Shown here one piece after another: positions 14,157-56,567 of a stretch of DNA of 58,208 bases. Numbering within the stretch: position 1 is the stretch's first letter; every line of letters begins with the position of its first letter. The translations under genes and the position numbers were made by a program. Origin of the DNA: a virus (taxonomy: Duplodnaviria > Caudoviricetes); IMG/VR virus record IMGVR_UViG_3300036945_000096, positions 1 to 58,208 of that record; one strand, written 5' to 3'. Under the pieces are notes generated by a model. The model was given only the letters and a program-made list of their open reading frames with translations, made no database searches and had not been told where the DNA came from.

Positions 14157-16579
14157 AAGATTTTACAGCACAACAAAAGGAAGTCGTAGCTAGGAAGCTA
14201 GGATACGATGGTCCTATGCAAGGCTTTGATGAGTTTATCTCATCTTCTCCTGCATTGGAGGCTAAGTATGCTGCCATCTCTGGTAAGTTCGTTGAGCGTA
14301 TGGCTAAGGGCGGGGCTGTTACTGGTATGAAGTTTGTAGCTGGTGGCACAACACCAGACTACGAACAGATTGTTAGAGATAACTATGCTGCTATTGGTAA
14401 GACTGGTATTGGTCAGGGATCTAACAACATTGATCCTGAAGGATTTAAAGGTTGGGTTAATGATTTAAAAACAGGAGTAGTTACTCCTGAGAAATTCGAG
14501 CAAAGATTTACAAATGCTGTATCAGATTACATAGCAGAAAAACCTACTGATAGGCACACAGAATATGTTCTAGATTATCTGGCTAATAAAAATAAAGTAG
14601 TTACAGGAGGTGTTACAAAAGCTGGTAGTGTCACTCTTGGTGCAGATGGTAAACCTACAGTAGGAGATGCTGCTCAAGTGACAGCAGCACAGGTTACTAC
14701 CAATGAAAATCAAAACGTAGATACTGCTAACAGAGCAGATGATAATGCTAACACAGCACAGGGTGCTACTGCTATTAAAGCAGAAACTGCTGCTGCTCCC
14801 ACTGCTGCTAAAGCTTCTACATATCAAGCACAGCAAACTGCTGAAGATGTAGCCCTTCTATTAAAGGGTGTTTCTCCAGCAGTTGGTACTGTGGGTGAGT
14901 CTAGCAAAGTGGCTGCACAGACAGTGGAGCCAACAAAGACAGCACTAGCTGACCTTGCTCCTGCAGCCCTTGCTAAAGCTCAGACTGTTGAGGGTGCTCC
15001 TACTAGAGCACTACAAGAAGGCGAACAAGTATCTGCTGCTGTTGATGCTGCTAGGGCTGAAGCAACTGCTAAGGCTACAGAAGCTGCTGCTGCTCAAGGC
15101 ACAGTGACAGAAGACATGACTGTTCAAGGACAGCTTGCTAAGCTCACTGCCAACTTCGATGCTAAGAACCCACCTTCATGGGCTGCTGGTGCTCTTAGAG
15201 AAGCTACTGCTGTAATGGCAGCTAGAGGTCTTGGTGCTTCTAGCTTGGCTGGTCAAGCCATAATTCAAGCTACCCTTGAGAAAGCTCTGCCTATTGCCAC
15301 TGCTGATGCAGCCATCTTCCAGCAGATGGGATTACAGAACCTATCTAATAAACAACAAACTGCTGTGCTTGCTGCTCAGCAACGGGCTGCTTTCTTGGGA
15401 CAAGAGTTTGATCAAACCTTCCAAGCAAGAGTTACTAATGCTGCTAAGATTTCTGACATTGCCAACCTCAACTTTACAGCAACACAGCAAATTGCTTTAG
15501 AGAATTCTAGGATGGCACAGACAGTTGATCTGGCTAACTTGAGTAATCAACAAGCTGCTATCATGGCTTATGCTGCACAGGTAGCAAACCTTGAGGTTAC
15601 TAATCTAACCAACAAACAACAAGCTGCTGTTGTTAATGCTCAAGCCTTCTTACAGATGGACTTAGCTAACTTGACTAATCAGCAACAAACAGTGCTGTTC
15701 AAGACACAACAGATGACAACTTCATTGTTATCTGATTCTGCTTCTATGAATGCTTCTCTGCAGTTTAATGCTGCAAGTACAACACAAGTGGATCAGTTTA
15801 ACAGTACATTGTCTACGCAGGTTACACAATTCAATGCCACTCAGAAGAATGCCATTGCTCAGTTTAACACTGACCAAGAGAATGCACTGTCTAAGTTTAA
15901 TGCTGAAGTGCAGAACCAACGTGATACTTTCAATGCTACACAACGATTGGTTATTGATCAGTCTAATGCTCAGTGGCAAAGAGAAGTTGCTACAGCTAAT
16001 ACAGCAGCAACAAATGCAGCTAACAATTTAAATGCTCAGTTGTCACAGAACATGACACTGGCTGAGTACAACAATGAGACACAGCTCTATAGAGACAATG
16101 TTTCATTTGCTTGGCAAGCGGGGCAGAATGATTTAGATAGAGCTAATAAGTTAGCGGTGTCTGAGATAAGTGCTTCTGCGGGAGTAAAAACAGCAAATGC
16201 TACAGCAAAGAATAATTTAATAACTACAGGTGCTAAAGCAGCAGCTATGTTCTTACTTGGATCTGATGAACGAATGAAAAATATACAAGGTCCTATTACC
16301 AATGCTCTAGATAAGATTAAACAAATTGGGGGATACTCTTACACTTACAAAGTAGAGGTAGAGCCTTTTGGTTATGATAGTACAACTACTACAATGGGTG
16401 TATTAGCTGGAGAAGTTAAGAAAATATTACCACATGCTGTTGTGCCAACATCATTTAATCCTAACTTGGATATGGTGGACTATGCAGCAGTTAACGGATT
16501 GTTAGTGGCTGCAGTTAATGAACTCATCACTAAGGTTGATTTACTTTCTACACGATTGAATGATCTGGAGAAGAAATAA
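14153..16579 (+). CDS. Internal virion/ejection protein with C-terminal peptidase S74-like domain
   Basis: A/Q/N-rich helical body; SDERMK...GVLAGEV..ILP.AV...VDY C-terminus. Confidence 0.7.
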   Translation: MKDFTAQQKEVVARKLGYDGPMQGFDEFISSSPALEAKYAAISGKFVERMAKGGAVTGMKFVAGGTTPDYEQIVRDNYAAIGKTGIGQGSNNIDPEGFKGWVNDLKTGVVTPEKFEQRFTNAVSDYIAEKPTDRHTEYVLDYLANKNKVVTGGVTKAGSVTLGADGKPTVGDAAQVTAAQVTTNENQNVDTANRADDNANTAQGATAIKAETAAAPTAAKASTYQAQQTAEDVALLLKGVSPAVGTVGESSKVAAQTVEPTKTALADLAPAALAKAQTVEGAPTRALQEGEQVSAAVDAARAEATAKATEAAAAQGTVTEDMTVQGQLAKLTANFDAKNPPSWAAGALREATAVMAARGLGASSLAGQAIIQATLEKALPIATADAAIFQQMGLQNLSNKQQTAVLAAQQRAAFLGQEFDQTFQARVTNAAKISDIANLNFTATQQIALENSRMAQTVDLANLSNQQAAIMAYAAQVANLEVTNLTNKQQAAVVNAQAFLQMDLANLTNQQQTVLFKTQQMTTSLLSDSASMNASLQFNAASTTQVDQFNSTLSTQVTQFNATQKNAIAQFNTDQENALSKFNAEVQNQRDTFNATQRLVIDQSNAQWQREVATANTAATNAANNLNAQLSQNMTLAEYNNETQLYRDNVSFAWQAGQNDLDRANKLAVSEISASAGVKTANATAKNNLITTGAKAAAMFLLGSDERMKNIQGPITNALDKIKQIGGYSYTYKVEVEPFGYDSTTTTMGVLAGEVKKILPHAVVPTSFNPNLDMVDYAAVNGLLVAAVNELITKVDLLSTRLNDLEKK

Positions 16580-16581
16580 TT

Positions 16582-16797
16582 ATGAAGAACTTTAAAAAGT
16601 ATTACAGCAAGATCAATAGCATTGTTGATAAGACTATGTCAACACCTAAAGTTGATCCAGTATCCAAAGGCATTGTGCAGCGTCCAGCAAAGAAGGAAGC
16701 AGCACCTGCAGGTAAGATGACTGCTGAGCAACAAGTAGCTAGATATGTTGAAATTATTCGCAAGCAAAAGAAGGAACTTCTAAATGATAAAGCCTGA
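16582..16797 (+). CDS. Small basic protein
   Basis: ORF packed in the virion operon. Confidence 0.65.
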   Translation: MKNFKKYYSKINSIVDKTMSTPKVDPVSKGIVQRPAKKEAAPAGKMTAEQQVARYVEIIRKQKKELLNDKA

Positions 16798-17263
16798 AGA
16801 TTTTTTAGAAGCTCCCATTCCCGGCATGTCTTTGACAACAGAACCGGGTAGTGTGCCTTGGGAACAACCACCACAACTTGTAACAATTCAAGAGGTAGCG
16901 GATTTCTATATTAATAAACTAACAGAAGATCAAGAAGCCATTGATAAAACTCTTGATGCTATTGAACTAGGTGTGCCTCTGCAATCATTAGCTAATGGAG
17001 CCATCATGTTTAATATGATGAAAGGCATACATACTATTGATGTAGGTTTCTTAGTAATGCCTATTCTTGTTGAACTGTTTATTACCCTAGCTGAATTAAA
17101 TGATATTAAATACTCTATGACTCCTGAAGATAGAATTAAAGGTAAGGTTCTTGACAGAAGTCTTGTGGAAAAGATTGTTAATAGTTCAGAAGAAACAACT
17201 GAAGAAGCTATTCAATCTCTTGCTCCTGTTAGTAAAGGCTTGATGTCTAAAGGAAATATGTAA
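16784..17263 (+). CDS. Conserved virion-module protein
   Basis: APIPGMSLT.EP...PWE.PP N-terminal motif. Confidence 0.7.
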   Translation: MIKPEDFLEAPIPGMSLTTEPGSVPWEQPPQLVTIQEVADFYINKLTEDQEAIDKTLDAIELGVPLQSLANGAIMFNMMKGIHTIDVGFLVMPILVELFITLAELNDIKYSMTPEDRIKGKVLDRSLVEKIVNSSEETTEEAIQSLAPVSKGLMSKGNM

Positions 17264-18714
17264 TGTCTTTTTTAATTCCATTTTTAACAGGTGCTCTTGA
17301 GGGGTTTACTGAAGTAACCAAGAAAGAAGATGAAGTTAATGCTGCTACTATTCAAGAGAAACTTAAAGCTTCTTATACCACTAGACTCGAAAAGAAAAAA
17401 GAACTAGAAACCGAAAGAGCAGCAGCAACTAAGGTTGTTAATTCTCTTAGGGGTATTGAGTTTGCTGATGGTCCTTTGGACAATAGTCAGCTAATCAATA
17501 TTGCCACTAAGCCAAAGCTTGCTGAAAGTATTCTTAAGAAACTGGATGATGATCCAGAATGGTTTAAGAAAACAAATAGAGGTTTCATTAGGGCAGTCGA
17601 AGGTGTTGATCCAACTATCGATATCAATAAACACTTTGACAGTGTCTATCGCTTACAGAAAGAAGCAGCAGCTAATGCTGAGACTTTCTTTGCTGCTCCT
17701 GAAGGTGCTTCGTTCTTAGAAAAGAGAACAGCAAGAAATAATTTAATCACTGCTAAACAGACAGCAGCTAAGCTTGGTGTGTCATTAGAAGATTTACTGT
17801 CTACATATAAACCATCGTCTTCCTTTGTTTCTAACATGGGTAGAGTAGATCCTTCTGCTTTAACTAAGCCTGAAGACTTTGATAAGATGGAGAAGAGACT
17901 TAAGTCTGAATTTGTTAAAGCTCAACAGTCTGGTGATCCAGAAGCAATTTCTAAAGCTGATGCCAACATTGGTAGGCTTGTCATCTTGAATGAGAAGATG
18001 AGACTTGAGAAGAAGTCTGAAGCTGAAATTCAAAGTGACATGGTTACAGACATTCAGAAAGCTAAGTCTGAAGGTACTCCGGCTAGTCAATCTAAGGCTA
18101 AGAACTTAGAAGCTTTGTTACAACAACGTAAAGTATTGTTACAAGCTCTGCCTACAGTTACAGCAGAGAAGACATCACAAAGCAATTGGATTACTATTGC
18201 TAATAGAGCAGTGTCTTCTAGAATGGAAGAGCTTATTCCCGGTAAGTTTATTTCCACTGTGGCCTTGGATGGCACAATCACTATGACACCTAAGTCAATT
18301 GGTAGCACAGAATTTCAAGCTGCTATGACTAAAGCTAAGAGTGAGGTTGTTAATGACTTCACTAGTAATGGTGCTCCTAAGTCTGAGTTTCATAAGAATG
18401 CTTTGATATCTATTGGTGTTGGCTTTAGAGATGGTAGACCTGTGGTTGGTGGTAATGTCTTAACTACTGCAGATGTTGAAGCTCAGAAGGCTGCTGCTGC
18501 AGCTTCGGCTACAGCACCTGTACCTGCCCCTGCTCCAACTGCACCTGTAGTGCCAGCATCTACAGCAAGCGGTAGGGCAACACCTACACCTGCGTTACCC
18601 TTACCATACACACCAGAAGGTCAGCCAGACACTTCTAAATTAATTGCAGGAAAAACATATAGATCTTCAACTGGTGGCACTAGAAAATGGAACGGCACAA
18701 GCTGGGAACAATAA
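17263..18714 (+). CDS. Internal virion protein (putative)
   Basis: 483-aa helical protein between internal-protein genes. Confidence 0.55.
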   Translation: MSFLIPFLTGALEGFTEVTKKEDEVNAATIQEKLKASYTTRLEKKKELETERAAATKVVNSLRGIEFADGPLDNSQLINIATKPKLAESILKKLDDDPEWFKKTNRGFIRAVEGVDPTIDINKHFDSVYRLQKEAAANAETFFAAPEGASFLEKRTARNNLITAKQTAAKLGVSLEDLLSTYKPSSSFVSNMGRVDPSALTKPEDFDKMEKRLKSEFVKAQQSGDPEAISKADANIGRLVILNEKMRLEKKSEAEIQSDMVTDIQKAKSEGTPASQSKAKNLEALLQQRKVLLQALPTVTAEKTSQSNWITIANRAVSSRMEELIPGKFISTVALDGTITMTPKSIGSTEFQAAMTKAKSEVVNDFTSNGAPKSEFHKNALISIGVGFRDGRPVVGGNVLTTADVEAQKAAAAASATAPVPAPAPTAPVVPASTASGRATPTPALPLPYTPEGQPDTSKLIAGKTYRSSTGGTRKWNGTSWEQ

Positions 18715-21700
18715 ATGGCTAACGAATTTGATCTGTTTACTTCAGCCCCTACGGGGGCTTCTGTTTCACCTGTACAGGATGAGTTCTCTTCCTTTGTTAC
18801 TCCGACAACACCACCCCCTAAAAAAGATGAGTTCTCTTCTTTTGCTGCAACAGCCTCTGCTCCAGTGTCTGAGAAGCCAGCAGAAGATTTAACTAACCCT
18901 GCTTTCATTGCTCCTCGACAGAGAGCTACGAAGTTGGTGGAGAGGGCAGCAACTATTAAAGAAGAAGAAGCAAAGAAGATTCCTTTCGATGATTTGTGGA
19001 AAGATAATAACAACTACAAAGTCATTCAAGAATATGCTCTTGCTAGATTTGGACAACAAGAAGGCACTCCCAGAAAAGGAGAAACAAAGCAAGACTTTGT
19101 TAATCGCTTTGCTACGCACATGCGTATGCTAGATACTGGCAATGAGTTTAATAGTGTTGGTGAGTTGCAGTATTTAAACAATGCTAAGAGAGAAGACATT
19201 CTTAAAGCAGGTGCTGCCTATGATTTGTTTAAGAACACTGCTGGTGTGTTCGATGAACAGAACAGAGGACAAAAAGGATTCCGTCCTGTAATGGATGTGT
19301 TGTCTAGCATTATCAGTAGTCCATCTACTGCATTGACACTTGGTGTAGGTAAAGTTGCTACTAGTGGTTTAACAAAACTGATAGCAGAGAAAGGCACTAA
19401 AGCTGCTCTTACTTCTGCTAAGGGTGTCGGTATGGCAACAGCTACACCAGCCGTTAGTGCTGCTACAACAGCAGCACAAGATGCTGTAGCACAGAAGATT
19501 GAGTTAAATGTAACACAGGCTGAGTTTGATCAAGCAAAGAAGATTGATCCAAAGACACTCACTGAAGAAGGACAGAAACAACTTCAAGCTTACATTGATG
19601 ATAGACAAAAGAAACTAGAAGAAGGTGTCAGTGGTAAGCGTCTAGCTTTAGCTGGTGCTATTGGTGCTGTAACAGAGACAGCAGAAGTGTTACCTTTTCT
19701 TCGTGGTGTAGGTAGGAAAGCAGGTACTAGCCAACTAGATGAAATCCTTAAAACTAGAAGAGCACCAGCTACAGGGGAAACACCAGCACCTAAGGTTGAA
19801 GTAACAGCTAAAGACCCAACAGAAAAAGCATTAGAAGATTCTTACGATATCTTTGAAGGACGTAGGCTTCTTGATGAGCAGGGCCAACCAACATCTGTAG
19901 CACAGATGGAAGTTAGAAACGATCTTAATAAGAGAGCTACATTAATTGCTCAAGACATATGGAAACAGATTCCTGAGTTTGCTCCTCAAGCTACAGAGAA
20001 AGTGTCTGATGCTATTAAGCGTACACTTGAATCTGTAGATACCTTTGATGATGTTGTGTTTGAAAGAGCATTGGCATCTGCTGATGTAACACCTGATGAG
20101 TTTGCTAAGATGTTTAGAACATCTGTTGGTGATGCTGCTCGTTCTTTACAGAGCTTGTCTGTTGTTGCTCGTCTGCAAAACAAACTGAAGAACATTGATC
20201 CTGCTGCTGCTGCAGAATTGAACAAGATGTATGGTGATAGAAGTGCTATCACTTCAGCCTTCACTGGAGTCAGAGACTTTGGTATGCGTCTTGATAGAGA
20301 ACTGAAAGCCTTGATGGTGTCTCAGATTGCTACCACCATTCGCAATGCTTTCTCTGGTGTTTCTGTTATTACATTTGGAACAGCAGCAGAGGCTATTGAA
20401 TCTACTTTATATCGAGTGGGTAAGACAGTAGGTGAACTTACTACAGGTAAACCTGTCACTGGTAGTTTCACTGGTGGTATCAAAGGCATCTATGCTGATT
20501 CTGTTCGCTCTGCTTTCTACTTAGGACAAAGAGAGTTGTCTGCTGATGTAACAGATGCTTTACTCAGTGGTACTCCAGCCTTGTATAGAAAGATGGTTAA
20601 GACAACAGGTGAAGCTGGTCCTAATGATTTGTCTAAGGCAGCACAAATTGCTAATACATTTAACGTAGCTCAAGATGCTTTCTTCCGTAAAGCTATGTTT
20701 ACTTCCTCGGTAGAGAAGCAACTTAGCCGTGTTGGTATTGACATGTATGATGTTATTGCACAAGGTAAGCAAGTACCTTTTGATGTGTTACAGAATGCTG
20801 TTAATGAAGCACTCACTGGTACATTCAGTAAGATGCCTACCAAAGGTCCCATGTTCCATGCTGTAAAGTTTATTGAAGAGCTTGGTCCTATTGGCTCTAC
20901 ATTTATACCTTTCCCACGCTTCATGGCTAACGCTATGGAATGGACATATAAGCACATGCCTACTGGTGCGTTATCTGGCAGCGTAGACATAGCTGCTGGC
21001 TTAACTAAGATGGCTAAGGGCGAAGCTGACATGGGAACTAAGCAAGTTACTATGGGGCTTGAGAATTTATCTAAAGGTGCTGTAGGCACTGCTGCTTTGT
21101 ATGCTGCCTTTAAATATAGACAAGAAAATCAAGACACTGAGTGGTACAACATAAAGAATCCTGATGGCTCAACTGTAGATGCTAGAGCGTTGTTCCCTGC
21201 TGCTCCTTTCCTTGCTTTGGGTGATTATATTGTTAAGTTTCAGAATCAAAGAACAGATGAATTCAAGACAAAAGAATTCTTAGAAGCTATGATTGGTTTC
21301 AAAGCACCAGCAGGTACATACTCATGGCTTGGTGATAAGTTTGCTGAGGCCCAATCAAATGCAGCAACAGGCGAAGACACAGCAGATAACAAAGTTAAGA
21401 CATTCTTTGGTGAGTGGGTGGGTGAATACTTAGGTAGAGCACTTGTTCCTTTCCAACAGATCAGCGATATTGTTGGTGCTATTGATCGCAATGAAACACT
21501 GCCTAGAGATGCTTATCAGATTCCAGCGGGTGAAGAAGGATTTACTTCTTCAGCTAAACAGCAATTGATAAAGCGTACTCCTATATTGAAACAAGAGTTG
21601 CCTGTATATCAACCACCACTCAGAGAGACAGCAGCATTTAATGACAATGGTCCATTGAAGATGTTGTCTGGTATTGCTATTAAAGGTGTTCCTTCTGTAT

Positions 21701-35895: not shown

Positions 35896-36992
35896 ACTAG
35901 TCCTCGCATTTCCTGTGTCACTGTTGCACTACGCAAAGTGTTCTTGATGTATGGTGTTAGGCTCTGCGGGGTAGCATGTCCTGACACCGACATGATGTTG
36001 GTGATGGGTACACCCACCTCAATCATCTCTGTGATAGCTGTCCTTCGCAAGTCCTGTAACACAAGATCACTAGGCAGATTTGCATCAGCTAAGATTTGTT
36101 TAGCCACTCTAGACAAGTTAAACAAACTGTAAGGTAGCAAGCCACCTTTCCTATCAGGCACATTGGATGGTGCAATGTATTGCTGCCAACCAAACTCAGC
36201 ATGCTGTTGTCTCAGCATAGTTAGTAGCCCCTGACTTGTGGGGATAGTCACCCTAGACCTACGCTTGCTTTGTTCCAAGTGCAACACACCCTTCTCTAGG
36301 TCTACCTGATCCCATCGTAGCTTACGCATGTCACCCATACGCTGTCCATATTCATAGCCCATCTGCACAATGAGTCCCACATTACGCCACTTGAATGTGG
36401 AATAGGCAGTGTTCATGAATGCTCTCACATCTTCCCTGCTCCATACAGTTCTGCGAGGCTTGTCTGCCCTTCGTAGCACCTTGCTGAATGGGTTGTGCTT
36501 AATGTAGCCATGACGGATAGCGAAGTTGAATAGCAATCGGTACACTGCCAAGGTGTGGTTAGCTAAGCTAACACTATGTTCAGCATGCTGTTCATATATC
36601 TTCTGACAATGCGGTGTGACTAAGTCACCTAGCTTGCATTGATACAGACTAACACCATTAGCTCTACTGTCCTGCCATCCCTGTAGGTAGTAGATGTAGT
36701 CACGCTGTGCTTTAGCACTGAGCTTTGTGTAAGTGATGTTGTTCCTGTATGCCTTGACTAAGTCAGCCACCTTCGTCTTCTCAGAGATATCTTTAAGATA
36801 TCTAAGCTCTTTACGCCAGTTGTCTAGCTGAGCATTTAGTTCTGCAGCCAAAGCAAATGCTTTGTCTTTGTCTTCACCAAGCACACGCCTAGCCACCACC
36901 CCTGCATCCACTGCGTCCTGTGGTGGGTTGTAGCGATACTTGGTTACACCTTCGGTGGCCTTAGCCAAGGTTACATAGCGAGGGAGAGTCAT
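35892..36992 (-). CDS. Tyrosine recombinase/integrase-family protein
   Basis: GQR..D, K, QDLRRT, SGH and C-terminal Tyr. Confidence 0.88.
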   Translation of the reverse strand: MTLPRYVTLAKATEGVTKYRYNPPQDAVDAGVVARRVLGEDKDKAFALAAELNAQLDNWRKELRYLKDISEKTKVADLVKAYRNNITYTKLSAKAQRDYIYYLQGWQDSRANGVSLYQCKLGDLVTPHCQKIYEQHAEHSVSLANHTLAVYRLLFNFAIRHGYIKHNPFSKVLRRADKPRRTVWSREDVRAFMNTAYSTFKWRNVGLIVQMGYEYGQRMGDMRKLRWDQVDLEKGVLHLEQSKRRSRVTIPTSQGLLTMLRQQHAEFGWQQYIAPSNVPDRKGGLLPYSLFNLSRVAKQILADANLPSDLVLQDLRRTAITEMIEVGVPITNIMSVSGHATPQSLTPYIKNTLRSATVTQEMRGLV

Positions 36993-37837
36993 TGATCGTC
37001 ACCTCCCAGTGCATATAAATTTTCAGCCATAGCTAACAGTTCATCATGCTTAACCAACTTGTTAAGCCATCTCTTGGGGATGTTGCTATACCCATAGATA
37101 CGCCCTGCTAACATACCAGTGACAGCACCTACAGTGTCAGCGTCATAGCCTAAGTTGACAGCATGCACCACTGCATCCTCGAAGCTATGGCTTAGGTCAA
37201 CACTGTTCCATGCTTGAGCATAAGCATGCATGATGGTGTTCACAGTACGCTCACCATTCCTTGTGTTGTAGTTACGAATGCGGTTGTAGTTTAGGAACTT
37301 AGTTCCTGCCATACATTCTGAAACAAACCCTGCTGTACATTGAACAATGTTGTGAGTGCCATGTGTCATCAACGACACAGCCACACTCTCAGCTATAGCT
37401 AAGCCCACATCATTGTGATTGGCTAACATGATGGGAGCTAGTCGCATGATAGTTCCATTGCCACTGGCATAGAAGTCTGTGCTTCCCATGTAAGGACGAT
37501 CTGTAGTCATAGCATCAATGGATGTTGAGCAAGTACGCCCTATGTCAAAGACATAATTTCTAGTGCCAAAGTGTCCTGTCTTCTTCCACATTTTAAAGTT
37601 GGCAGCAATCTCGCTTGGAGCAAAGCCACCCTTACTAATGTAAGCATCAGCAATAGCAACAGCCATAGCACCATCATCTGTCCATTCACCAATGGCAGTG
37701 TCATGCACACCACCACCCACCATCTCTGATGTTACCTCTGTCATATGTTCGGGACGAATGAATTCCAATGGAGCACCCAGTGCATCTCCAATGAACAGAC
37801 CCATGAACATACCTATCGCATTATCTTTATGCATCAA
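36989..37837 (-). CDS. ADP-ribosylglycohydrolase (DraG/ARH family)
   Basis: GDALGAP.EF, WTDD, GNG..MR..P, TH, DADT.GA..G..AG..YG. Confidence 0.93.
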   Translation of the reverse strand: MMHKDNAIGMFMGLFIGDALGAPLEFIRPEHMTEVTSEMVGGGVHDTAIGEWTDDGAMAVAIADAYISKGGFAPSEIAANFKMWKKTGHFGTRNYVFDIGRTCSTSIDAMTTDRPYMGSTDFYASGNGTIMRLAPIMLANHNDVGLAIAESVAVSLMTHGTHNIVQCTAGFVSECMAGTKFLNYNRIRNYNTRNGERTVNTIMHAYAQAWNSVDLSHSFEDAVVHAVNLGYDADTVGAVTGMLAGRIYGYSNIPKRWLNKLVKHDELLAMAENLYALGGDDQ

Positions 37838-45700: not shown

Positions 45701-45711
45701 TTTGCTTCCTT

Positions 45712-45901: not shown

Positions 45902-46015
45902 TTGTCCACAGTTTGTTAGTATCGCATTTTGAGATGTTGTGGATAAGACTAGATTGTGCTGTGGATAACTTTGGAAATTGAAGGTTGTTGATAACTTCGA
46001 TTTTGCTGTGGATAA
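45902..46015. promoter_or_regulatory. Cluster of five DnaA boxes
   Basis: TGTGGATAA at 45938, 45960, 46007; one-mismatch boxes at 45902 (TTGTCCACA) and 45986 (TGTTGATAA). Confidence 0.8.
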
Positions 46016-46541: not shown

Positions 46542-46560
46542 AATGAGAACAATTCTCATT
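46542..46560. promoter_or_regulatory. Fur-box-like palindrome
   Basis: AATGAGAA-CAA-TTCTCATT. Confidence 0.45.
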
Positions 46561-47157: not shown

Positions 47158-47439
47158 ATGAACTATTACACCCGACAAGAGCTAGATGACAGAGGACTAA
47201 CAAACACATATCCCTACAGTGTGGCTACACAAGCTTCACTAGCGTTACACAGAGGTTATGTAGACAAGATGCACCTATTCCACAGTGATGTCTATTACGT
47301 CAGAGCAGCTATGGAAAAACATACAGGATATGTATTTCCCTTAGACAAAGTAGAAGATGCTATGAGAGCTGAGGGATGGAAAGAACACAGACACTTACCA
47401 AAGAAGAAACAACATGGCAACAAAGAAAAGCACAGTTAA
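47158..47439 (+). CDS. Hypothetical protein, first gene of + arm
   Basis: 93-aa ORF; HSDV.YVRAA motif. Confidence 0.65.
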   Translation: MNYYTRQELDDRGLTNTYPYSVATQASLALHRGYVDKMHLFHSDVYYVRAAMEKHTGYVFPLDKVEDAMRAEGWKEHRHLPKKKQHGNKEKHS

Positions 47440-47593
47440 TGCTGCTGGCAACTACACCAAGCCTACAATGCGTAAGGCGTTGGTAGCTAAGGTGAAGGCT
47501 GGTTCTGCTGGTGGAGATCCGGGTGAATGGTCTGCTAGGAAAGCACAGCTTGTAGCAAAGAAATACAAAGCTGCTGGTGGTGGTTACAAATGA
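47414..47593 (+). CDS. 59-aa basic protein (not in ORF track)
   Basis: NYTKP..R......GG.PG.WSARKAQ.....YK..GGGY. Confidence 0.8.
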   Translation: MATKKSTVNAAGNYTKPTMRKALVAKVKAGSAGGDPGEWSARKAQLVAKKYKAAGGGYK

Positions 47594-47823
47594 AAGCTTC
47601 TCAGAAATCTTTAAAGGATTGGACAGCCCAGAAGTGGACAACAAAGTCTGGTAAGCCTTCTGCTAAAACAGGAGAGCGTTATCTTCCTGAAGCTGCCATT
47701 AAGTCTTTAAGCTCTGCTGAGTATGCAGCCACCACTAAAGCTAAGCGTGAAGGCACAAAAGCTGGTAAGCAGTTTGTTAAACAGCCTAAGGCCATTGCCA
47801 AGAAAGTGAGCAAGTTCCGATGA
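47590..47823 (+). CDS. Small basic protein
   Basis: Q.SL..WT.Q.W.TKSGK.S...GERYLP. Confidence 0.8.
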   Translation: MKASQKSLKDWTAQKWTTKSGKPSAKTGERYLPEAAIKSLSSAEYAATTKAKREGTKAGKQFVKQPKAIAKKVSKFR

Positions 47824-48089
47824 TTAAAAAAGGTAGTGAAGAGTTTTCAGGGTATAACAAGCCCAAAGCCACACCTAAGCATCCTACGAAGAGTCATGCT
47901 GTGTTAGCTAAAGAGGGTGACACAGTGAAGCTTATTAGGTTTGGACAACAGGGTGTTAGTGGTGCTGGCTCTAGTCCAGACACTCCTAAGGACAAGGCTA
48001 GGCAGAAGAGCTTCAAAGCTCGTCATGCTGAGAATATTAACAAGGGTAAGATGTCTGCTGCTTATTGGGCAGATAAGGTTAAGTGGTAA
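47820..48089 (+). CDS. Small basic protein
   Basis: KLIRFGQQG...SF.ARH...SA.YW..K..W. Confidence 0.8.
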   Translation: MIKKGSEEFSGYNKPKATPKHPTKSHAVLAKEGDTVKLIRFGQQGVSGAGSSPDTPKDKARQKSFKARHAENINKGKMSAAYWADKVKW

Positions 48090-48104
48090 CTAAAAGGAGA
48101 AACT

Positions 48105-48497
48105 ATGGCTACCGATGCAGAGAAAGTAAAGATGTACCGAGAGAAGGCTAAGGATGAGTCTATCCCTCAAGAGGTGCGTAACACCTACTTGGATAGGGCT
48201 AATGAGCTAGAGCGTAAAGCTTATGAAGCCACTAAGGGTACTCCTCCAGCTAAGCTGGCTAAAGGTGGTATGCCTGTAAGAGGTAGCCGTACAGCCACTA
48301 ACAAAGAGAAGAAGATGATGGGTGGTGGTTATGCTATGCCAACAAAGAAACCATTGATGGCTAAAGGAGGAGCTGTTAAAGCTGCTGCTGCTAAGAAGCC
48401 TGTGGTTGCCATTATGATTGGTATGGCTAAGCCAACTAAAGCTCCTATGAAGAAGGCCATGAACACAGGTGGTATGGCTAAAAAAGGTAAGTGCTGA
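48105..48497 (+). CDS. Lys-rich protein with repeated GG motifs
   Basis: AAGGAG RBS; LAKGG, MMGGG, MAKGG, MNTGG. Confidence 0.75.
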   Translation: MATDAEKVKMYREKAKDESIPQEVRNTYLDRANELERKAYEATKGTPPAKLAKGGMPVRGSRTATNKEKKMMGGGYAMPTKKPLMAKGGAVKAAAAKKPVVAIMIGMAKPTKAPMKKAMNTGGMAKKGKC

Positions 48498-48676
48498 TGG
48501 CTACTAAAAAGCAAACAGCTAAAGTGGCTAAGGTGATGGGTGAGTTTAAAGACAAAGGCTTGCACAGTGGCAAAGGTGGTAAGGTTGTTACAAACCCCAA
48601 GCAAGCCATTGCCATTGCTTTGTCTGAAGCTAAAGTAGCACCTAAAGCTGCTTCTAAATCGCCTAAGAAGAAATGA
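48497..48676 (+). CDS. Small basic protein (DUF6496-like)
   Basis: KV..VM.EFK...LHSG...V....QAIAIALSEA. Confidence 0.7.
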   Translation: MATKKQTAKVAKVMGEFKDKGLHSGKGGKVVTNPKQAIAIALSEAKVAPKAASKSPKKK

Positions 48677-50246: not shown

Positions 50247-50255
50247 GAGATTATT

Positions 50256-50624
50256 ATGGCTAAAAGAGAACTAAGCGAACAACAGAAAAAATTCATTGAG
50301 GTGTTATTTACCGAGGCTGGGGGCAATCCTCACAAGGCTAGACAGCTTGCTGGCTACAGCGAAGGCTACAATACCAAAGTCCTTATGGAAGTTCTTAAGG
50401 AAGAAGTGATTGAGGCTACACAGCTTTACATCGCTATGAATGCTCCTAGAGCAGCTATGGCTGTTGTCAGTGGCATTTCCGATCCTACAGAGCTAGGCTT
50501 GAAAGAGAAGCTTAACGCTGCTAAGGATTTGTTAGACAGGGCTGGTTTGGTGAAGACAGAGAAAGTTCAGGTGACAGCACCTAACGGCATTATGATTTTG
50601 CCAGCCAAAGACAGCGGTGAGTGA
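50256..50624 (+). CDS. Terminase small subunit
   Basis: L.E.Q.KF...A..AGYS HTH, AA..LLDRAG; upstream of TerL. Confidence 0.8.
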   Translation: MAKRELSEQQKKFIEVLFTEAGGNPHKARQLAGYSEGYNTKVLMEVLKEEVIEATQLYIAMNAPRAAMAVVSGISDPTELGLKEKLNAAKDLLDRAGLVKTEKVQVTAPNGIMILPAKDSGE

Positions 50625-51099
50625 TAGAGACTTAGGGGCTTGGATACTTCCCCAACCGAAAGCAAAGGAAACATATGTACCTATCCCAAAAATTAGAAAA
50701 ACTATACCATTTGGTTACAGACAAGATGAAGAAGACCCTAACCTTTTGCAGCCAATACCTACAGAGCTTGAAGCGTTAGAACTAGCTAAGAAACATTTAA
50801 AACAATATAGCTCTAGGCAGGTAGCAGCTTGGCTTACCACCACAACAGGTAGAACTATAAGCCATGTGGGATTGTTAAAGAGAATAAAGACTGAAAGAAC
50901 TCATGGACGAAAATCCGCTACTTACCGCAACCTTGCCACAAGGCTCAAAAAAGCCCTTGAGCAAGCGGAAAGGTACGAAGAAAAATCCAAGAGGCTCGGC
51001 AGGGAAGACCAAACAGGATACTTCGAGTCAGAACAGTACAGCAAGCTCTCCGAATATATCGATAGTAAACTCGCCAGAGATTCCTCTAGCGACACCTGA
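50617..51099 (+). CDS. DNA-binding protein with recombinase-like PFGY/HTH domain
   Basis: IPFGY...E...L...S.R.VA.WL...GR.ISH.GL. Confidence 0.6.
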   Translation: MSDRDLGAWILPQPKAKETYVPIPKIRKTIPFGYRQDEEDPNLLQPIPTELEALELAKKHLKQYSSRQVAAWLTTTTGRTISHVGLLKRIKTERTHGRKSATYRNLATRLKKALEQAERYEEKSKRLGREDQTGYFESEQYSKLSEYIDSKLARDSSSDT

Positions 51100-52498
51100 T
51101 GATAGGGAAGTATTGTTTAAGCCCAATCCGGGGCCACAAACATTCTTCTTAGCTTCTTCAGAGAGAGAAGTTTTATATGGTGGTGCTGCTGGAGGTGGTA
51201 AAAGTTATGCCATGCTTGCAGATCCGCTTAGGTATATGGTACATCCACAGTTTTCTGGGCTTCTGTTACGACACACTACAGAAGAACTTCGAGAACTTAT
51301 TTGGAAGAGTCAAGAGCTTTATCCAAAGATTTATCCCGGCATCAAGTGGAGTGAGAGAAAGATGCAATGGGAAGCTCCGTCAGGTGCTAGACTGTGGATG
51401 TCCTACCTTGATAGAGATGAAGACGTACTGAGATATCAGGGTTTGGCGTTTAGCTGGATTGGTTTTGATGAGTTGACGCAGTGGCATACGCCATTTCCGT
51501 GGAATTATATGCGTTCTCGACTGCGTACAGCAGCGTCAGACCTACCAATCTTCATGAGAGCTACTACCAATCCGGGTGGTCCGGGTCATGCTTGGGTGAA
51601 GAAGATGTTTATTGACCCTTCTCAAGCGGGTAAAGCCTTTGATGCCACTGATATTGAGAGTGGAACCACCTTAGTGTATCCCAAAGGACACAGTAAGGAG
51701 GGGCAAGCACTGTTTAAGCGTAGGTTTATCCCTGCTATGTTGACAGATAACCCCTATTTGATGCAAACTGGTGACTATGAGACTATGTTGTTGTCTCTTC
51801 CTGAGCACCAAAGGAAGCAACTACTAGAGGGTAACTGGGATATTGCTGAAGGTGCAGCATTCCCTGAGTTTAATAGGCAGATACATGTGGTAGAACCATT
51901 CCACATACCGAGTAATTGGACTAAATTTAGGGCTTGCGACTATGGATACGGAAGTTATAGTGCTGTGGTGTGGTTTGCTGTGTCTCCAAGTGAGCAATTG
52001 GTGGTCTATCGTGAGCTATATGTTAGCAAAGTGCTTGCCAAAGACCTCGCTCACATGGTGATGAGGGCTGAGGAGAACGATGGCCCTATGAGATATGGGG
52101 TGTTGGACAGTAGTTGCTGGCATAAGCGTGGTGATACAGGTCCATCACTGGCAGAACAGATGATTGCAGAGGGCTGTAGGTGGAGGCCGTCTGATAGAAG
52201 TGCTGGAAGTAGGGTGGCGGGTAAGAATGAGCTGCACAGAAGGCTACAACTTGACCCCTTTACAGAACAGCCAAGACTAGTTATAACAAGCAACTGTGTA
52301 AACACGATTGCTCAGCTACCCATCATACCTTTGGACAAGAGAAACCCAGAGGATATTGATACTAAGGCTGAAGATCACTTATATGATGCTATTCGGTATG
52401 GAGTGATGAGCAGACCTAGAAGTAGTTTGTTCGATTACAATCCATTACATTCTGCTGGAGCTGGTATGAAGACAGCAGACCCAGTATTTGGGTATTAA
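50903..52498 (+). CDS. Terminase large subunit (start uncertain)
   Basis: GPQ..F, YGGAAGGGKS, FDE, TNPGG, DYG, DH.YDA.RY. Confidence 0.95.
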   Translation: MDENPLLTATLPQGSKKPLSKRKGTKKNPRGSAGKTKQDTSSQNSTASSPNISIVNSPEIPLATPDDREVLFKPNPGPQTFFLASSEREVLYGGAAGGGKSYAMLADPLRYMVHPQFSGLLLRHTTEELRELIWKSQELYPKIYPGIKWSERKMQWEAPSGARLWMSYLDRDEDVLRYQGLAFSWIGFDELTQWHTPFPWNYMRSRLRTAASDLPIFMRATTNPGGPGHAWVKKMFIDPSQAGKAFDATDIESGTTLVYPKGHSKEGQALFKRRFIPAMLTDNPYLMQTGDYETMLLSLPEHQRKQLLEGNWDIAEGAAFPEFNRQIHVVEPFHIPSNWTKFRACDYGYGSYSAVVWFAVSPSEQLVVYRELYVSKVLAKDLAHMVMRAEENDGPMRYGVLDSSCWHKRGDTGPSLAEQMIAEGCRWRPSDRSAGSRVAGKNELHRRLQLDPFTEQPRLVITSNCVNTIAQLPIIPLDKRNPEDIDTKAEDHLYDAIRYGVMSRPRSSLFDYNPLHSAGAGMKTADPVFGY

Positions 52499-52507
52499 AG
52501 GGTATTT

Positions 52508-54607
52508 ATGGCGACAAACAATTTTATGGATGACAAGTCCATTGGTTTAGGGGATAAGAAGGAAGGCGAGGCTGCACCATTTACTGGTGATAGCCTCTTA
52601 GCTTTTCTAAACGATAGATACACCAAGTCTGAAGAGAGTCGCAGACAAGATGAACAGCGTTGGCTGAAGGCTTACAGAAACTATCGTGGTCTATATGGAC
52701 CAGATGTTAAATTCACTGAGACAGAAAAGAGCAGAGTGTTTGTTAAAGTGACAAAGACCAAGGTGCTTGCAGCATATGGTCAAATCACTGATGTGTTATT
52801 TGCTAATAATAGATTTCCCTTAAGTGTTGATCCAACTGTATTGCCAGAAGGTGTAGTTGATTCAGTACATATGGATCCTAAGGCTCCAGAAGATGCTGAG
52901 CCTGAAGTTGTTTCTCCCTTTGGATATAAAGGAGATGGTAAAGATTTACCTCCCGGTGCAACCTATGCCAGTTTGATGGATAGACTTGGACCACTGAAGG
53001 ACCAACTTAAAGATGCTAAGAATTTAAAAGAAGGTCCGGGTGTTACACCTACCTCTCTTACATTCCATCCTGCTATGGTGGCAGCTAAGAAGATGGAGAA
53101 GAAGATACATGACCAGTTGGATGAGAGTGGTGCTAACAAGCATCTCCGTTCCACTGCCTTTGAGATGGCTCTGTTTGGTACAGGCATCATGAAGGGTCCA
53201 TTTGCTAAGACCAAAGAATATCCTAGCTGGGATGATGAAGGTACTTACAAGCCTGAGATGAAGACAGTACCAGAGACATCACATGTTTCTATCTGGAACT
53301 TCTATCCTGATCCTGATGCTTCCAACATGGAAGAGGCTCAATATATTATTGAGAGACACAAGCTGAGTGCTACACAACTTAGGGCTTTGAAGAATCGTCC
53401 TTTGTTTAGAAACAATGTTATTGAAGATGTCATTGCTGAAGGTGCTTCTTACACTAAGAAGTATTGGGAAGATGACTTGAGAGACTATGCTCCCAACTTG
53501 GGAGTAGATAGATTTGAAGTGTTGGAGTATTGGGGCAATGTTGATATTGACATGCTCAAAGAAAACGACATTGATATTCCTGAAGCTTTGTTGGAAGTTA
53601 AGGAGTTGCAAGCCAACGTATGGTTCTGCAACAACAGAGTGATTCGCTTAGTATTGAATCCGTTTAAGCCAGCCAACATTCCGTATTACGCTGCTCCTTG
53701 CGAACTAAACCCCTACTCTCTATTTGGCATTGGTGTTGCCGAAAACATGGACGACACCCAGACCCTCATGAATGGTTTTATGCGTATGGCTGTAGATAAT
53801 GCAGTGTTGTCTGGCAACCTTGTATTCGAGGTTGATGAAACCAATCTCGTTCCCGGTCAAGACATGACAGTGTTTCCGGGTAAAGTGTTTAGGAGACAGG
53901 GTGGTGCTCCCGGTCAGTCTTTGTTTGGAACACAGTTTCCGAATGTGGCTGCACAGAACTTGCAACTGTTTGATAAGGCTAGACAATTGTCAGATGAATC
54001 AACAGGTATGCCTTCCTTCTCACATGGTCAAACAGGTGTTAGTGGTGTAGGCAGAACAGCCTCTGGTATTTCTATGTTGATGAATGCTGCTTCTGGTAGT
54101 GTTAAAACCATCATCAAGAATGTGGATGATTACTTGTTGGCCCCACTTGGTAAAGCTTTCTTTAGCTTTAACATGCAGTTTGATTTTGATAGATCTATCA
54201 AAGGTGATTTGGAAGTTACAGCCAGAGGAACAGAGAGCTTGATGGCTAATGAGGTGAGGAGCCAACGCTTGATGCAATTCTTGCAGATTGCTAGTTCTCC
54301 AGCATTGATGCCGTTTGCTAAGTTCCCTTACATCATTCGTGAGATAGCAAAGAGTATGGACTTAGATCCAGACAAGGTGACTAACAATATGGATGAGGCT
54401 TTGCGTCAAGCTTTACTGATGCAGCAAGCTACAGCTCCTGCTGCTCCGGCAGAGGGTGCTCCTCCAGTTGGTGGCCCAGAAGGTGGTCCTCCTCCAGTAT
54501 CTGATATGACTGGTGGTGGTGGTGGAAATATCGGTGTTGGTGCTGCACCAGTACCGGGTGAACAAGGATTTGCTGGTAATGTCCAAGCTGTACCTCCCCA
54601 AGCTTAA
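52508..54607 (+). CDS. Portal protein
   Basis: 699 aa after TerL; FGTG..KG, NFYPDP, RTASG.SML motifs. Confidence 0.92.
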   Translation: MATNNFMDDKSIGLGDKKEGEAAPFTGDSLLAFLNDRYTKSEESRRQDEQRWLKAYRNYRGLYGPDVKFTETEKSRVFVKVTKTKVLAAYGQITDVLFANNRFPLSVDPTVLPEGVVDSVHMDPKAPEDAEPEVVSPFGYKGDGKDLPPGATYASLMDRLGPLKDQLKDAKNLKEGPGVTPTSLTFHPAMVAAKKMEKKIHDQLDESGANKHLRSTAFEMALFGTGIMKGPFAKTKEYPSWDDEGTYKPEMKTVPETSHVSIWNFYPDPDASNMEEAQYIIERHKLSATQLRALKNRPLFRNNVIEDVIAEGASYTKKYWEDDLRDYAPNLGVDRFEVLEYWGNVDIDMLKENDIDIPEALLEVKELQANVWFCNNRVIRLVLNPFKPANIPYYAAPCELNPYSLFGIGVAENMDDTQTLMNGFMRMAVDNAVLSGNLVFEVDETNLVPGQDMTVFPGKVFRRQGGAPGQSLFGTQFPNVAAQNLQLFDKARQLSDESTGMPSFSHGQTGVSGVGRTASGISMLMNAASGSVKTIIKNVDDYLLAPLGKAFFSFNMQFDFDRSIKGDLEVTARGTESLMANEVRSQRLMQFLQIASSPALMPFAKFPYIIREIAKSMDLDPDKVTNNMDEALRQALLMQQATAPAAPAEGAPPVGGPEGGPPPVSDMTGGGGGNIGVGAAPVPGEQGFAGNVQAVPPQA

Positions 54608-54788
54608 AGGCTTTGTAAACACTCATGTAACATGGGATGCGTTCTTAGATTTGCTTGATGCAGAAATTGCAAACAAGCAGAAAGACTTAGAACAAGCTTC
54701 AGAGATGCGTGAGATTGGAAAGGCTCAAGGAGCCATTGCTGCTTTACGCAGATTGAAATATCTTAAGGATGAAGTAAATGTACACTAG
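54579..54788 (+). CDS. Small post-portal protein
   Basis: W..F...L...QG.I..LR.L..L motif. Confidence 0.7.
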   Translation: MSKLYLPKLKGFVNTHVTWDAFLDLLDAEIANKQKDLEQASEMREIGKAQGAIAALRRLKYLKDEVNVH

Positions 54789-54812
54789 TGATGTGTTTAT
54801 TCAAGGGAGTAC

Positions 54813-56567
54813 ATGATGGGGTTGGCAACACAGTTAGCAAAAGCTGGAGTAAAGAAAGCAGCTAAATCATCTTCTTCATTAACAGACTTAGTAAAAAATA
54901 ACTCTGTTGCTAAGTCTAAAGAGATAACTCCACAAGAAATTACTGAGTATATTAAGACAACACTTATACCAAAAAAAGAAAGCGATAAAAATTTTAAGTC
55001 TAAGTTCAAAGACACTACAGTTGTAGATGAGAAGAATAAACCCCGTGTGATGTATCACGGAAGAAATAAAGATTTTGAAAGTTTTGATACTGGTAATGTT
55101 AAAACAGATACACAAGAAATTGGGACACACATAGGCACTGCAGATCAAGCTAATGAGTTTGCTACTAGAGAAGGTGGTAATGTTGTGCCAACATATTTAG
55201 ATGTAAAGAACCCATTGAGATTAAATGATTATGGTAGTTTTGGTAGTGGTGAAGTATTAGAGCAGTTGAGATCAACAGGAAAGTTTAATGAAGACCTTCT
55301 TGATGAAATAGAAAATATACCTTCTATTGTTGAACGGAATAAAGCTGTTGTTGATTTAATTAAGAGTGATGGCTATGACGGAATTGTTTATCTTAATAAG
55401 AGAGAAGGTCTAAATCTAAAAGGAACAGAGAAACAGAAATCTGAAAAGATTGATGAACTTCAAGACTATGATGATGGAACACTAATAAAAAAGTATGGAG
55501 CAAAAGACTCCTACATAATTTTTGATCCCTCCCAAGCAAAATCTATTTTTAATAAAGGATCGTGGAGTGGATCGGATGATAGACTTAACTACAATAAAGG
55601 TGGCACTGTGAATGATATGAATAGACTGTTCGCTGAAGGCGGCATGAATGAAGAAGGTGGTACAGTAGATCCTGTATCTGGTAACGAAGTACCTGCTGGT
55701 TCTTTACAAAAAGAAGTTAGAGATGATATTCCTGCTCAGCTTAGCGAGGGTGAGTTTGTTCTTCCTGCTGATGTTGTTAGGTATATTGGCTTAGATAGGC
55801 TAATGAAGATTAGAGACAAGGCTAAAGAAGGCTTGGCTCGTATGGAAGAGATTGGTCAAATGGGCAATGCTGAACAAGCAGAAAGCCCAGAAGAACCACA
55901 TGGTGATGAGTTTGCTTCTGAGATTGATAGCATCATGAGTGAGCTGGATAGTGAAGGTGGAGAGAACAACTTAGCTGTTGGTGGTATGCCTACACCTAGT
56001 ACTGGCTTTCAAGTAAAACAGTTTAAGAAGCCTGATGGTAGCTCTATGTTTGTTACTTTCATTAATGGTGAACCAGCTACTACTATTCCAGAAGGTGCTC
56101 AAGAAGTAAACATTGCCAATCAAGCACAGAAAAATCAAGCATCTTTAACACCAACTGAAAAAGCAGTGAGCAATAAAACAAATATTGTTGATACGTTATT
56201 TTCTACTCCTGAAGAGGACAATAAGCGTATGGATAAAATGTTGTTTGATAAGATTGCTGAGAAGATGATAGAGAGGCAAAACAAAAAAACAATTAATGAG
56301 AATATTGAGTTTGATCCAAATGCTTTCAAATCAACAGACTCAGAACTTTTTAATTTCTCAGAAGCTGCTGACTATCGATTGACAGATGGTATGGAAGACA
56401 CTATGTTATCTGGGGCTATGAATGAAGCCGCTGCTCCTGTAATTCCTGAGATGCCCGTTGGCTCGGACACTATGCCAGATATGTCTTCTACAATGCCTGA
56501 TGTTTCTGCGATTGGTCCTGAGCTTGCTATGGCTAAAGGTGGCCTACTTACAAGACGTAAGAAATAA
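54813..56567 (+). CDS. Multidomain head-module protein: ART-PolyVal-like domain + DDIPAxLSEGEFV domain + acidic tail
   Basis: YHG...F..F...YL..KNPL...GYDG....Y..F.P.Q.KS; DPVSGN...DDIPAQLSEGEFV; four GG motifs. Confidence 0.7.
   Translation: MMGLATQLAKAGVKKAAKSSSSLTDLVKNNSVAKSKEITPQEITEYIKTTLIPKKESDKNFKSKFKDTTVVDEKNKPRVMYHGRNKDFESFDTGNVKTDTQEIGTHIGTADQANEFATREGGNVVPTYLDVKNPLRLNDYGSFGSGEVLEQLRSTGKFNEDLLDEIENIPSIVERNKAVVDLIKSDGYDGIVYLNKREGLNLKGTEKQKSEKIDELQDYDDGTLIKKYGAKDSYIIFDPSQAKSIFNKGSWSGSDDRLNYNKGGTVNDMNRLFAEGGMNEEGGTVDPVSGNEVPAGSLQKEVRDDIPAQLSEGEFVLPADVVRYIGLDRLMKIRDKAKEGLARMEEIGQMGNAEQAESPEEPHGDEFASEIDSIMSELDSEGGENNLAVGGMPTPSTGFQVKQFKKPDGSSMFVTFINGEPATTIPEGAQEVNIANQAQKNQASLTPTEKAVSNKTNIVDTLFSTPEEDNKRMDKMLFDKIAEKMIERQNKKTINENIEFDPNAFKSTDSELFNFSEAADYRLTDGMEDTMLSGAMNEAAAPVIPEMPVGSDTMPDMSSTMPDVSAIGPELAMAKGGLLTRRKK

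Follow-up and report, generated by a model that had tools for sequence, protein, structure and literature searches.

A di-glycine heptapeptide shared by unrelated late proteins of an HMO-2011-type podophage as a candidate virion-cargo signal

Four late proteins encoded by the virus IMGVR_UViG_3300036945_000096 (Duplodnaviria; Caudoviricetes) share a short peptide built on two glycines, in its strict form [FYML]-[AN]-x-G-G, and we hold with good confidence that this motif is a specific recognition signal of a set of proteins which are themselves probably packaged into the virion or ejected from it. The window analyzed here is the whole record of 58,208 bases, a complete virus genome with direct terminal repeats (a 127-bp repeat, leaving 58,081 unique bases), which was placed among the HMO-2011-type podophages (Puniceispirillum phage HMO-2011 and the Roseobacter CRP phages) by megablast and by tblastn of one of the four proteins, protein D. 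Open reading frames (ORFs) were called by a greedy method, giving 87 ORFs and 18,366 amino acids (aa), with 39 ORFs on the plus strand (11,301 aa) and 48 on the minus strand (7,065 aa).

Distribution and conservation of the motif

The 12 strict copies and two variants (FVAGG at position 14333 and MMGGG at 48315) listed in a preliminary description of the window were all found in place, in four plus-strand ORFs encoding the proteins referred to here as A, B, C and D. A search of all 87 ORFs returned 13 strict copies, the thirteenth (YALGG, aa 275 of 282) lying in an early ADP-ribosylglycohydrolase ORF on the minus strand (36989-37837); per strand, this amounts to 12 copies in 39 ORFs vs 1 in 48. 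When each of the four proteins was shuffled 5000 times, a mean of 0.46 copies was obtained (maximum 4) against the 12 observed, confirming an enrichment restricted to a particular group of late proteins. For the whole proteome the 13 observed copies compare with a shuffle mean of 3.0 and a maximum of 10 (5000 shuffles), an expectation inflated by a 304-aa glycine-rich protein among the tail and fibre genes (6282-7196, plus strand; Gly_rich_2, PF21722) that has 39 GG pairs and zero strict copies. The residues [FYML][AN]x precede 12 of the 23 GG pairs in A to D vs 1 of 125 GG pairs elsewhere. As had been proposed from the first inspection, the bearers are otherwise unrelated: pairwise BLASTP among A to D gave nothing significant (best match A-B, E = 0.012 over 40 aa), and C and D aligned best over the motif itself.

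Since the pattern was defined after inspection of this genome, whether it recurs in relatives serves as the independent test. Orthologues in cultured relatives and in about 170 metagenomic loci carried the motif at corresponding places, and in four complete relatives it was located in orthologues of A, B, C and D. Strict totals per genome were 4 in HMO-2011, 8 in ctYwJ313, 3 in CRP-1 and 7 in CRP-207 (shuffle means of 2.0-2.8); the totals of HMO-2011 (4 vs mean 2.4) and CRP-1 (3 vs mean 2.7) are not above their shuffles, so that in these two genomes the signal is carried by orthologous positions only. Across 80 metagenomic loci around the portal gene, D orthologues held 93 copies in 31.7 thousand aa (kaa) and C orthologues 9 copies in 0.7 kaa; next to none were seen in their neighbors (portal: 1 copy in 56 kaa; large terminase subunit TerL: 6 in 37.6 kaa; scaffold-like protein: 0 in 11.7 kaa; coat: 0 in 7.1 kaa). 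A copy at about residue 50 was present in 18 of 19 A orthologues, the exception being N-terminally truncated, and one or more copies were found in 13 of 16 B orthologues. No copy was present in the B proteins of HMO-2011, CRP-1 and CRP-207; these three genomes keep the motif in A, C-like or D proteins.

Alignment of 219 unique strict instances showed that the motif extends beyond the original pentapeptide. The first residue after GG was M, L, V or A in 68% (1.13 bits) and the second was V or A in 66% (1.26 bits), and the upstream flank, at 0.2-0.5 bits, was nearly uninformative. As the two downstream positions are informative though they were not selected for, the unit is a heptapeptide, and on the evidence of these alignments its core is hydrophobic-[A/N]-x-G-G-[M/L/V/A]-[V/A], often or usually followed by Lys or Arg. 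The pattern is thus symmetric (hydrophobic-small-x-G-G-hydrophobic-small), with a looser [A/N] position at some sites, among them the CRP-207 tail (M-K-D-G-G) and the site in front of the D module (F-E-D-G-G). All four glycine codons are used within the motif, GGA is depleted at the first glycine (6% vs 20% background), and a Shine-Dalgarno (SD)-like word was present in 18 of 200 nucleotide contexts. To judge by this codon usage, selection is on the peptide and not on the nucleotides; a nucleotide-level signal, in which K-G-G would reflect SD-like codons or internal starts, was rejected on the same counts. Tandem copies 3-12 aa apart occur, and copies are biased toward C-termini, with 27 of 219 instances at most 12 aa from the stop vs 2.1% expected.

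Motif positions in proteins D, B, C and A

Protein D (584 aa; 54813-56567, plus strand) is encoded between the portal and scaffold-like genes. Its N-terminal ART-PolyVal domain is followed by a conserved ~100-aa module and then by a small beta domain, and the protein ends in a tagged tail. The ART-PolyVal assignment is well above threshold (PF18760, aa 72-250, E = 4.4e-15, 57.1 bits vs a cut-off of 31.2), making D a multi-module protein of the polyvalent type beside the portal. Its four strict copies are YNKGG (aa 260-264; 55590-55604), which a survey of junctions shows to join the ART cargo to the conserved module; FAEGG (aa 273-277), the module's own copy (GGTVDPVSGNEVP...SEGEFVLPADVVRYIGL..LM; 55629-55868, 32 invariant columns in 43 sequences); and, from the alignment, LAVGG behind an acidic run (aa 387-391; 55971-55985) and MAKGG (aa 573-577; 56529-56543), which is followed by LLTRRKK and the stop codon, seven residues after GG. 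The region from aa 255 to 430 had 6679 homologues at E≤0.001, and the module gave weak matches to tape-measure PHROG families (5.4e-5, 0.0081 and 0.0086). The smallest D proteins, of ~180 aa, comprise a motif copy, the ~100-aa module, the acidic run, a second copy, ~40 aa, a third copy and a basic tail, and in orthologues the tail is conserved as G-G-L-A-S-K-K-stop.

In N-extended D orthologues (extension of >70 aa), 49 of 56 unique junctions carried a strict copy and 55 of 56 a relaxed one, counting copies 7-45 residues upstream of the module and excluding the module's own; many of the 56 junctions come from close relatives and represent, by eye, about two dozen distinct cargo contexts. The junction copy sits a few residues ahead of the point where 54 unextended forms begin. 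An AlphaFold2 (AF2) model of D aa 255-584 had an overall predicted local distance difference test score (pLDDT) of 61, a low-confidence monomer that is informative only for the placement of the motifs in coil: every copy lay in coil with a pLDDT of about 45-65 (below 50 at LAVGG), flanked by elements predicted with more confidence, and no ordered hairpin formed at the motif. The ORF positions, the joint survey and this model bear out the earlier observation that copies fall at domain borders and C-termini. Searches of D against the PDB with phmmer found nothing meaningful, and those with the portal gave only distant portal matches.

Protein B (1835 aa; 18715-24222, plus strand) occupies the gp16 position, after ORFs of 159 and 483 aa. 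Its ~1137-aa core is followed by linkers that the motif flanks and by a C-terminal extension of 600 aa. The first copy, YAVGG (aa 1138-1142; 22126-22140), marks the end of the conserved core; YALGG (aa 1203-1207; 22321-22335) and MNPGG (aa 1211-1215; 22345-22359) follow; and FNKGG (aa 1826-1830; 24190-24204) forms a C-terminal tag with LASRK and the stop five residues after GG. The B tail is conserved as [F/L]-[N/A]-K-G-G-L-A-S-R-(R/K)-stop. Short B orthologues of about 1100-1250 aa terminate at the equivalent of B aa 1122-1160, a range that includes the first copy at 1138, and in one of them (L171) the C-terminal tag ...LNKGGFVKRRT-stop aligns with the internal YAVGG of long B. The extension at B aa 1240-1835 (22432-24219, plus strand) was observed only in a clade of "long B" proteins and has motif copies on both sides; as it is flanked by the motif and belongs to no known family, it may be an uncharacterized cargo domain. 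B had no Pfam or PHROG match, its core and extension gave nothing useful against Pfam at E≤5, and phmmer against the PDB found nothing meaningful.

Protein C (130 aa; 48105-48497, plus strand) is a tiny basic protein (30 K/R vs 11 D/E), one of five small basic proteins encoded together upstream of terS. The ORF translation shows LAKGG (aa 51-55; 48255-48269), the variant MMGGG (aa 71-75; 48315-48329), MAKGG (aa 85-89; 48357-48371) and MNTGG (aa 119-123; 48459-48473), the last followed by MAKKGKC and the stop, seven residues after GG. In the relative L011 the counterpart of C is two ORFs, of which the first stops 12 residues after its M-S-K-G-G copy. The lysine-rich cluster as a whole (47414-48676, plus strand; ORFs of 59, 77, 89, 130 and 61 aa) lies upstream of a DUF7483 structural gene. 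One of its ORFs (47820-48089) is similar to part of PHROG 220, annotated as "minor head protein and DNA pilot", and such micro-proteins thus also exist elsewhere within larger proteins. Small basic proteins upstream of terS in L088, L022, L023, L024, L029, L048 and L077 often carry a second peptide after the motif, GG-[Y/M]-[A/V]-N-C-G-A-S-[V/M]-P-[P/A], with a conserved cysteine; protein C ends in ...GGMAKKGKC.

Protein A (808 aa; 14153-16579, plus strand) consists of a 49-aa N-terminal module, MAKGG (aa 50-54; 14300-14314), the variant FVAGG as a second, tandem copy (aa 61-65; 14333-14347), a shaft of variable sequence rich in Q, N and A and, at the C-terminus, a Peptidase_S74 autochaperone (PF13884, aa 704-763, E = 7.7e-13, 49 bits vs a cut-off of 22), the last placed as expected of an S74 intramolecular chaperone. 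Both copies appear in the translation and in the orthologue alignment: among 45 aligned orthologues G53 and G54 were invariant and M50, A51 and V56 were at least 90% conserved. The N-module is retained down to ~22% identity, divergence starting after the two tandem copies, and in L165 the unit of N-module and tandem motifs sits 518 residues into a larger protein. Pfam returned nothing useful for the N-module at E≤5, and A as a whole matched PHROG tail-fibre families.

A related tail with a single glycine was found in the 159-aa protein at the gp14 position (ORF 16784-17263, plus strand), which ends in G-L-M-S-K-G-N-M (17237-17260). G152, L153 and M154 are invariant in the orthologue alignment, and 47 of 48 distinct basic tails conform to G-[LIF]-[ML]-x-[KR], summarized as G-L-M-[S/A]-[K/R].

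Docking, cleavage and other explanations

We tentatively favor docking as the primary action of the motif. The heptapeptide lies in linkers predicted to be disordered and marks the C-terminal ends of modules in proteins whose genes occupy the places of those for internal or ejected virion components; proteins standing alone bear it as a C-terminal tail, and after fusion of a further module it stays behind as a joint. It would act as a portable address or hook, recognized non-covalently during particle assembly or in the retention of the contents, with several copies per protein adding binding strength. We infer that the bearers are packaged and that a partner (the coat interior, the scaffold, the portal, DNA or the motif itself) binds the motif. 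Conserved residues on both sides of GG and the conserved basic tails are explained by docking at least as well as by cleavage; proteins of 130-180 aa with three or four copies each, and the tandem arrangements, suit it; and the persistence of the motif where no conserved phage protease is predicted would fit it. Docking and cleavage are nevertheless near-equal readings, inseparable by computation and not mutually exclusive, and cutting at or beside some copies is a live possibility compatible with a tag function.

Two known systems illustrate the proposed mode. Encapsulin cargo-loading peptides are short, mostly C-terminal sequences, transferable and sometimes repeated, that dock unrelated cargo inside an HK97-fold shell without cleavage. 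The tails described here resemble them in being Gly/Leu/Ser/basic peptides at the C-terminus of proteins, on disordered linkers (27 of 219 instances; low-pLDDT coil), and differ in consensus and in the shell, which here is a DNA-filled phage capsid. The capsid targeting sequence of T4 on IPI-III and Alt is N-terminal and is removed by the prohead protease gp21, being both an address and a cleavage substrate. Like the present motif, it is a portable peptide for unrelated capsid-interior proteins, with an ADP-ribosyltransferase among the cargo; in contrast, the T4 signal has another sequence and needs a phage prohead protease and a scaffold core, whereas the motif here is internal or C-terminal and multi-copy, and no prohead protease (S77) family was found among the Pfam matches listed. 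A third comparison is with the polyvalent proteins of phages and plasmids, for which processing by zincin-like MPTase domains has been predicted (Iyer et al. 2017, PMC5512222). D, encoded beside the portal gene, is of this kind, having an ART-PolyVal domain and a packaging-type module to which variable cargo is joined; however, this genome has no MPTase-PolyVal, and the main text of PMC5512222, which lacks the words "glycine" and "linker", does not describe the joint motif.

Several observations weigh against docking as the primary action. No binding partner was found. The C-terminal tag is missing from B and D of HMO-2011 and CRP-1 and is therefore dispensable for the function of those proteins. 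A joint at every fusion is equally expected of a polyprotein cleavage signal, and because a C-terminal tag turns into a joint once a downstream module is fused (short vs long B), the joint pattern cannot discriminate between docking and cleavage. Protein A looks like an external fibre, a poor fit with an address for the capsid interior; a head-internal location, which the preliminary description had given to all bearers, is doubtful for A for this reason; the portal-adjacent ART-PolyVal protein D, the giant B at the gp16 position and the tiny basic proteins are of the sort expected among internal or ejected proteins. The B tag was present in 19 of 20 loci with a candidate protease gene described below vs 8 of 26 without it, and the cut in T5 pb2 adjoins A-E-G-G-M-M and the lambda gpH copies lie in its cleaved C-terminal part, a resemblance that also points toward processing.

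A maturation or processing site is accordingly a possible, if somewhat doubtful, explanation: a cut at or next to GG would free modules and trim tails, through a host enzyme, a mini-zincin present in one clade, or autocatalysis. It accounts for the motif at joints of independently fused modules (the 49 strict and 55 relaxed of 56 D junctions, and the end of the B core), and the 49-aa N-module of A with its two copies is propeptide-like. The one phage-encoded candidate enzyme is a 102-aa HExxH protein (13848-14156, plus strand; phrog_1233) encoded after the endolysin, with a stop that overlaps the start of gene A. Across 53 sequences H52, H56, D59 and E68 were invariant and E53 was at least 90% conserved, giving the HExxH motif and conserved third acidic ligand of a zincin; the family comprises 64 clusters and has no Pfam match. 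The AF2 model had a pLDDT of 89, and its top Foldseek matches in the PDB were PprI/IrrE, jannalysin, selecase and Spartan, all weak (E of 0.04-0.4, template modeling [TM] scores of 0.32-0.44, none at E≤0.001). This protein may be a new minimal phage metallopeptidase, and it may process tagged proteins in one clade. Where both A and B were complete (46 non-redundant loci), its presence was associated with the B C-terminal tag (zincin/tag: 19 +/+, 1 +/-, 8 -/+ and 18 -/-; Fisher P = 1e-5, ignoring phylogeny). A complex prediction of the mini-zincin with the N-terminal 130 aa of A scored 0.00 and, having been run without controls, speaks neither for nor against binding.

Against cleavage, no single protease is shared by all genomes that carry the motif. 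HMO-2011, CRP-1 and CRP-207 had neither a hidden Markov model match to the mini-zincin nor an HExxH ORF; as they keep the motif, the mini-zincin cannot be its general reader, and with eight tag-positive loci lacking the zincin (and one zincin-positive locus lacking the tag) its candidacy as universal reader was rejected. In a Pfam scan of the 87 ORFs, no peptidase family other than the Peptidase_S74 of A, and no C5, C63, other cysteine peptidase or prohead protease family, was seen among the matches listed (for the minus strand, 25 of 27 families). Targeted genome searches did not find Prok-JAB or MPTase-PolyVal (PF18818, E≤1), other peptidase families having been covered by the Pfam scans only. 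The phage-encoded GG-specific protease system envisaged in the preliminary description is thus not supported. Cutting at every copy would also shred the 130-180-aa proteins into peptides of 7-45 aa.

Precedents for cutting come from proteins that, like those proposed here, are ejected. In lambda, gpH is converted to gpH* and gpHC with loss of a ~14-kDa peptide from its Gly-rich C-terminal region, at a site and by an enzyme given as unknown in PMC12617516. gpH carries FATGG (733) and YATGG (778) around a GEFV segment, an arrangement that resembles FAEGG ... SEGEFV ... LAVGG in D. The lambda proteins (13,487 aa) contain 3 strict copies in all, 2 of them these; the P22 proteins (10,297 aa) contain none. 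A cut of gpH at FATGG would release 12.2-12.5 kDa, a size compatible with, and not proof of, the loss described in PMC12617516. T5 pb2 is cut after R1127 into pb2* and pb2C (PMC10038345), and the sequence in the region of the mapped cut (aa 1124-1134), FVPR|AEGGMM, places the cut one residue before an A-x-G-G-hydrophobic unit. Both proteins are cut by an unidentified activity (PMC12617516, PMC10038345). However, the T5 cut as mapped there precedes Ala instead of following GG, making the register uncertain, and the HMO-2011-type phage studied here lacks a tail tube. Homology is a separate matter: TIGR01541 scored gpH at 1.1e-134 and gave no match to A, B, C or D at E≤10, and neither gpH nor pb2 was recovered at E≤10 when four rounds of jackhmmer were run from the D module in a set of 2001 sequences. 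The tape-measure connection is therefore one of resemblance, and shared ancestry of the D module with gpH and pb2 was set aside, the weak PHROG matches remaining. The podovirus P22 offers a further parallel, its ejection protein gp7 losing 20 N-terminal residues to the host zinc peptidase OpdA, with the GG-rich KGGKGG next to the cut (record NC_002371); it differs in that the cut is N-terminal and not at hydrophobic-[A/N]-x-G-G, P22 having no strict copy.

The comparison from which the protease idea had started is with eukaryotic viruses. Adenovirus adenain and the African swine fever virus (ASFV) protease pS273R (GG-X sites) cleave virion precursors after GG, and the substrate consensus of adenain (C5) is (M/I/L)-X-G-G|X or (M/I/L)-X-G-X|G. 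The likeness lies in a short GG-centered signal with an upstream hydrophobic residue, often near termini, in several unrelated internal proteins including small basic ones. In our motif, however, the hydrophobic residue stands three residues before the first Gly, one further than in the adenain consensus (P5, not P4, if the cut follows GG), and two residues after GG are conserved; no C5 or other cysteine protease family was among the Pfam matches listed.

A third explanation, which we consider unlikely, dispenses with a reader altogether: the aromatic/Met-Gly-Gly-hydrophobic peptide would be a sticker or hinge, self-associating or kink-forming, through which cargo co-assembles into an internal body or modules fold back and thread through the portal channel. 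Multivalent copies in disordered segments, the symmetric pattern and the failure to find a conserved reader are all consistent with this, but a simple hinge needs no conserved A/N and V/A flanks and no C-terminal placement, and AF2 gave no ordered hairpin. A broader proposal, similarly improbable in our estimate, is that the heptapeptide is one dialect of a "GG joint code" throughout Caudoviricetes, spanning podovirus and crAss-like cargo and the C-termini of siphovirus tape measures, and served by a common activity that is not phage-encoded (a host enzyme or autocatalysis) or by self-association. Chance, composition or a nucleotide-level signal (SD-like AAGGAGG or internal starts yielding K-G-G) was rejected as very improbable, since, for all that the pattern is post hoc, that K-G-G codons can resemble a ribosome-binding site and that HMO-2011 and CRP-1 totals fall within shuffles, shuffling never exceeded 4 copies vs 12, diverged relatives carry the motif at orthologous sites, and neither codon usage nor the 18 of 200 SD-like contexts agrees with it.

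Genomic setting and biological significance

Gene order in the window agrees with HMO-2011. The small basic proteins are followed by the DUF7483 "virion structural protein", terS and terL; then by the portal (SU10_portal), protein D, the scaffold-like protein and the coat; by an adaptor, tail and fibre genes and lysis genes; and by the 102-aa HExxH ORF, protein A, ORFs of 71, 159 and 483 aa and the giant protein B, with the replication genes on the opposite (minus) strand. The coat gene (356 aa) is split by the ends of the record (57820-58208 joined to 128-809) and on linear reading appears as two open-ended ORFs. The ADP-ribosylglycohydrolase among the early genes (36989-37837, minus strand; 282 aa; PF03747, E = 1.7e-50) and the ART-PolyVal domain of D (54813-56567, plus strand) form a possible writer/eraser pair for ADP-ribosylation of host or phage proteins.

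The motif appears not to have been described in the literature searched, although by analogy its kind, a virion cargo tag or maturation signal, is already known. Searches with motif strings gave no phage paper among the matches listed, searches on ejection proteins and Gly-Gly gave no such motif among theirs, and those on mass spectrometry of HMO-2011 virions gave nothing on HMO-2011 virions among the matches. A review of ejection proteins (PMC8954989) mentions no shared incorporation signal ("glycine" and "incorporat" 0 times each).

How short-tailed phages choose the proteins that are packed into the head and injected is largely unknown. Were the "GG joint code" true, it would account for the loading and cutting of ejected proteins where no dedicated protease exists, and cleavage of lambda gpH would be predicted at or beside F733-G737; with the site and enzyme given as unknown in a 2025 paper (PMC12617516), the resemblance of the motif turns an old question into a testable prediction. 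A seven-residue tag in thousands of metagenomic proteins would allow virion cargo to be predicted, including the injected ADP-ribosyltransferase proposed here, and the tag could load foreign proteins into phage capsids.

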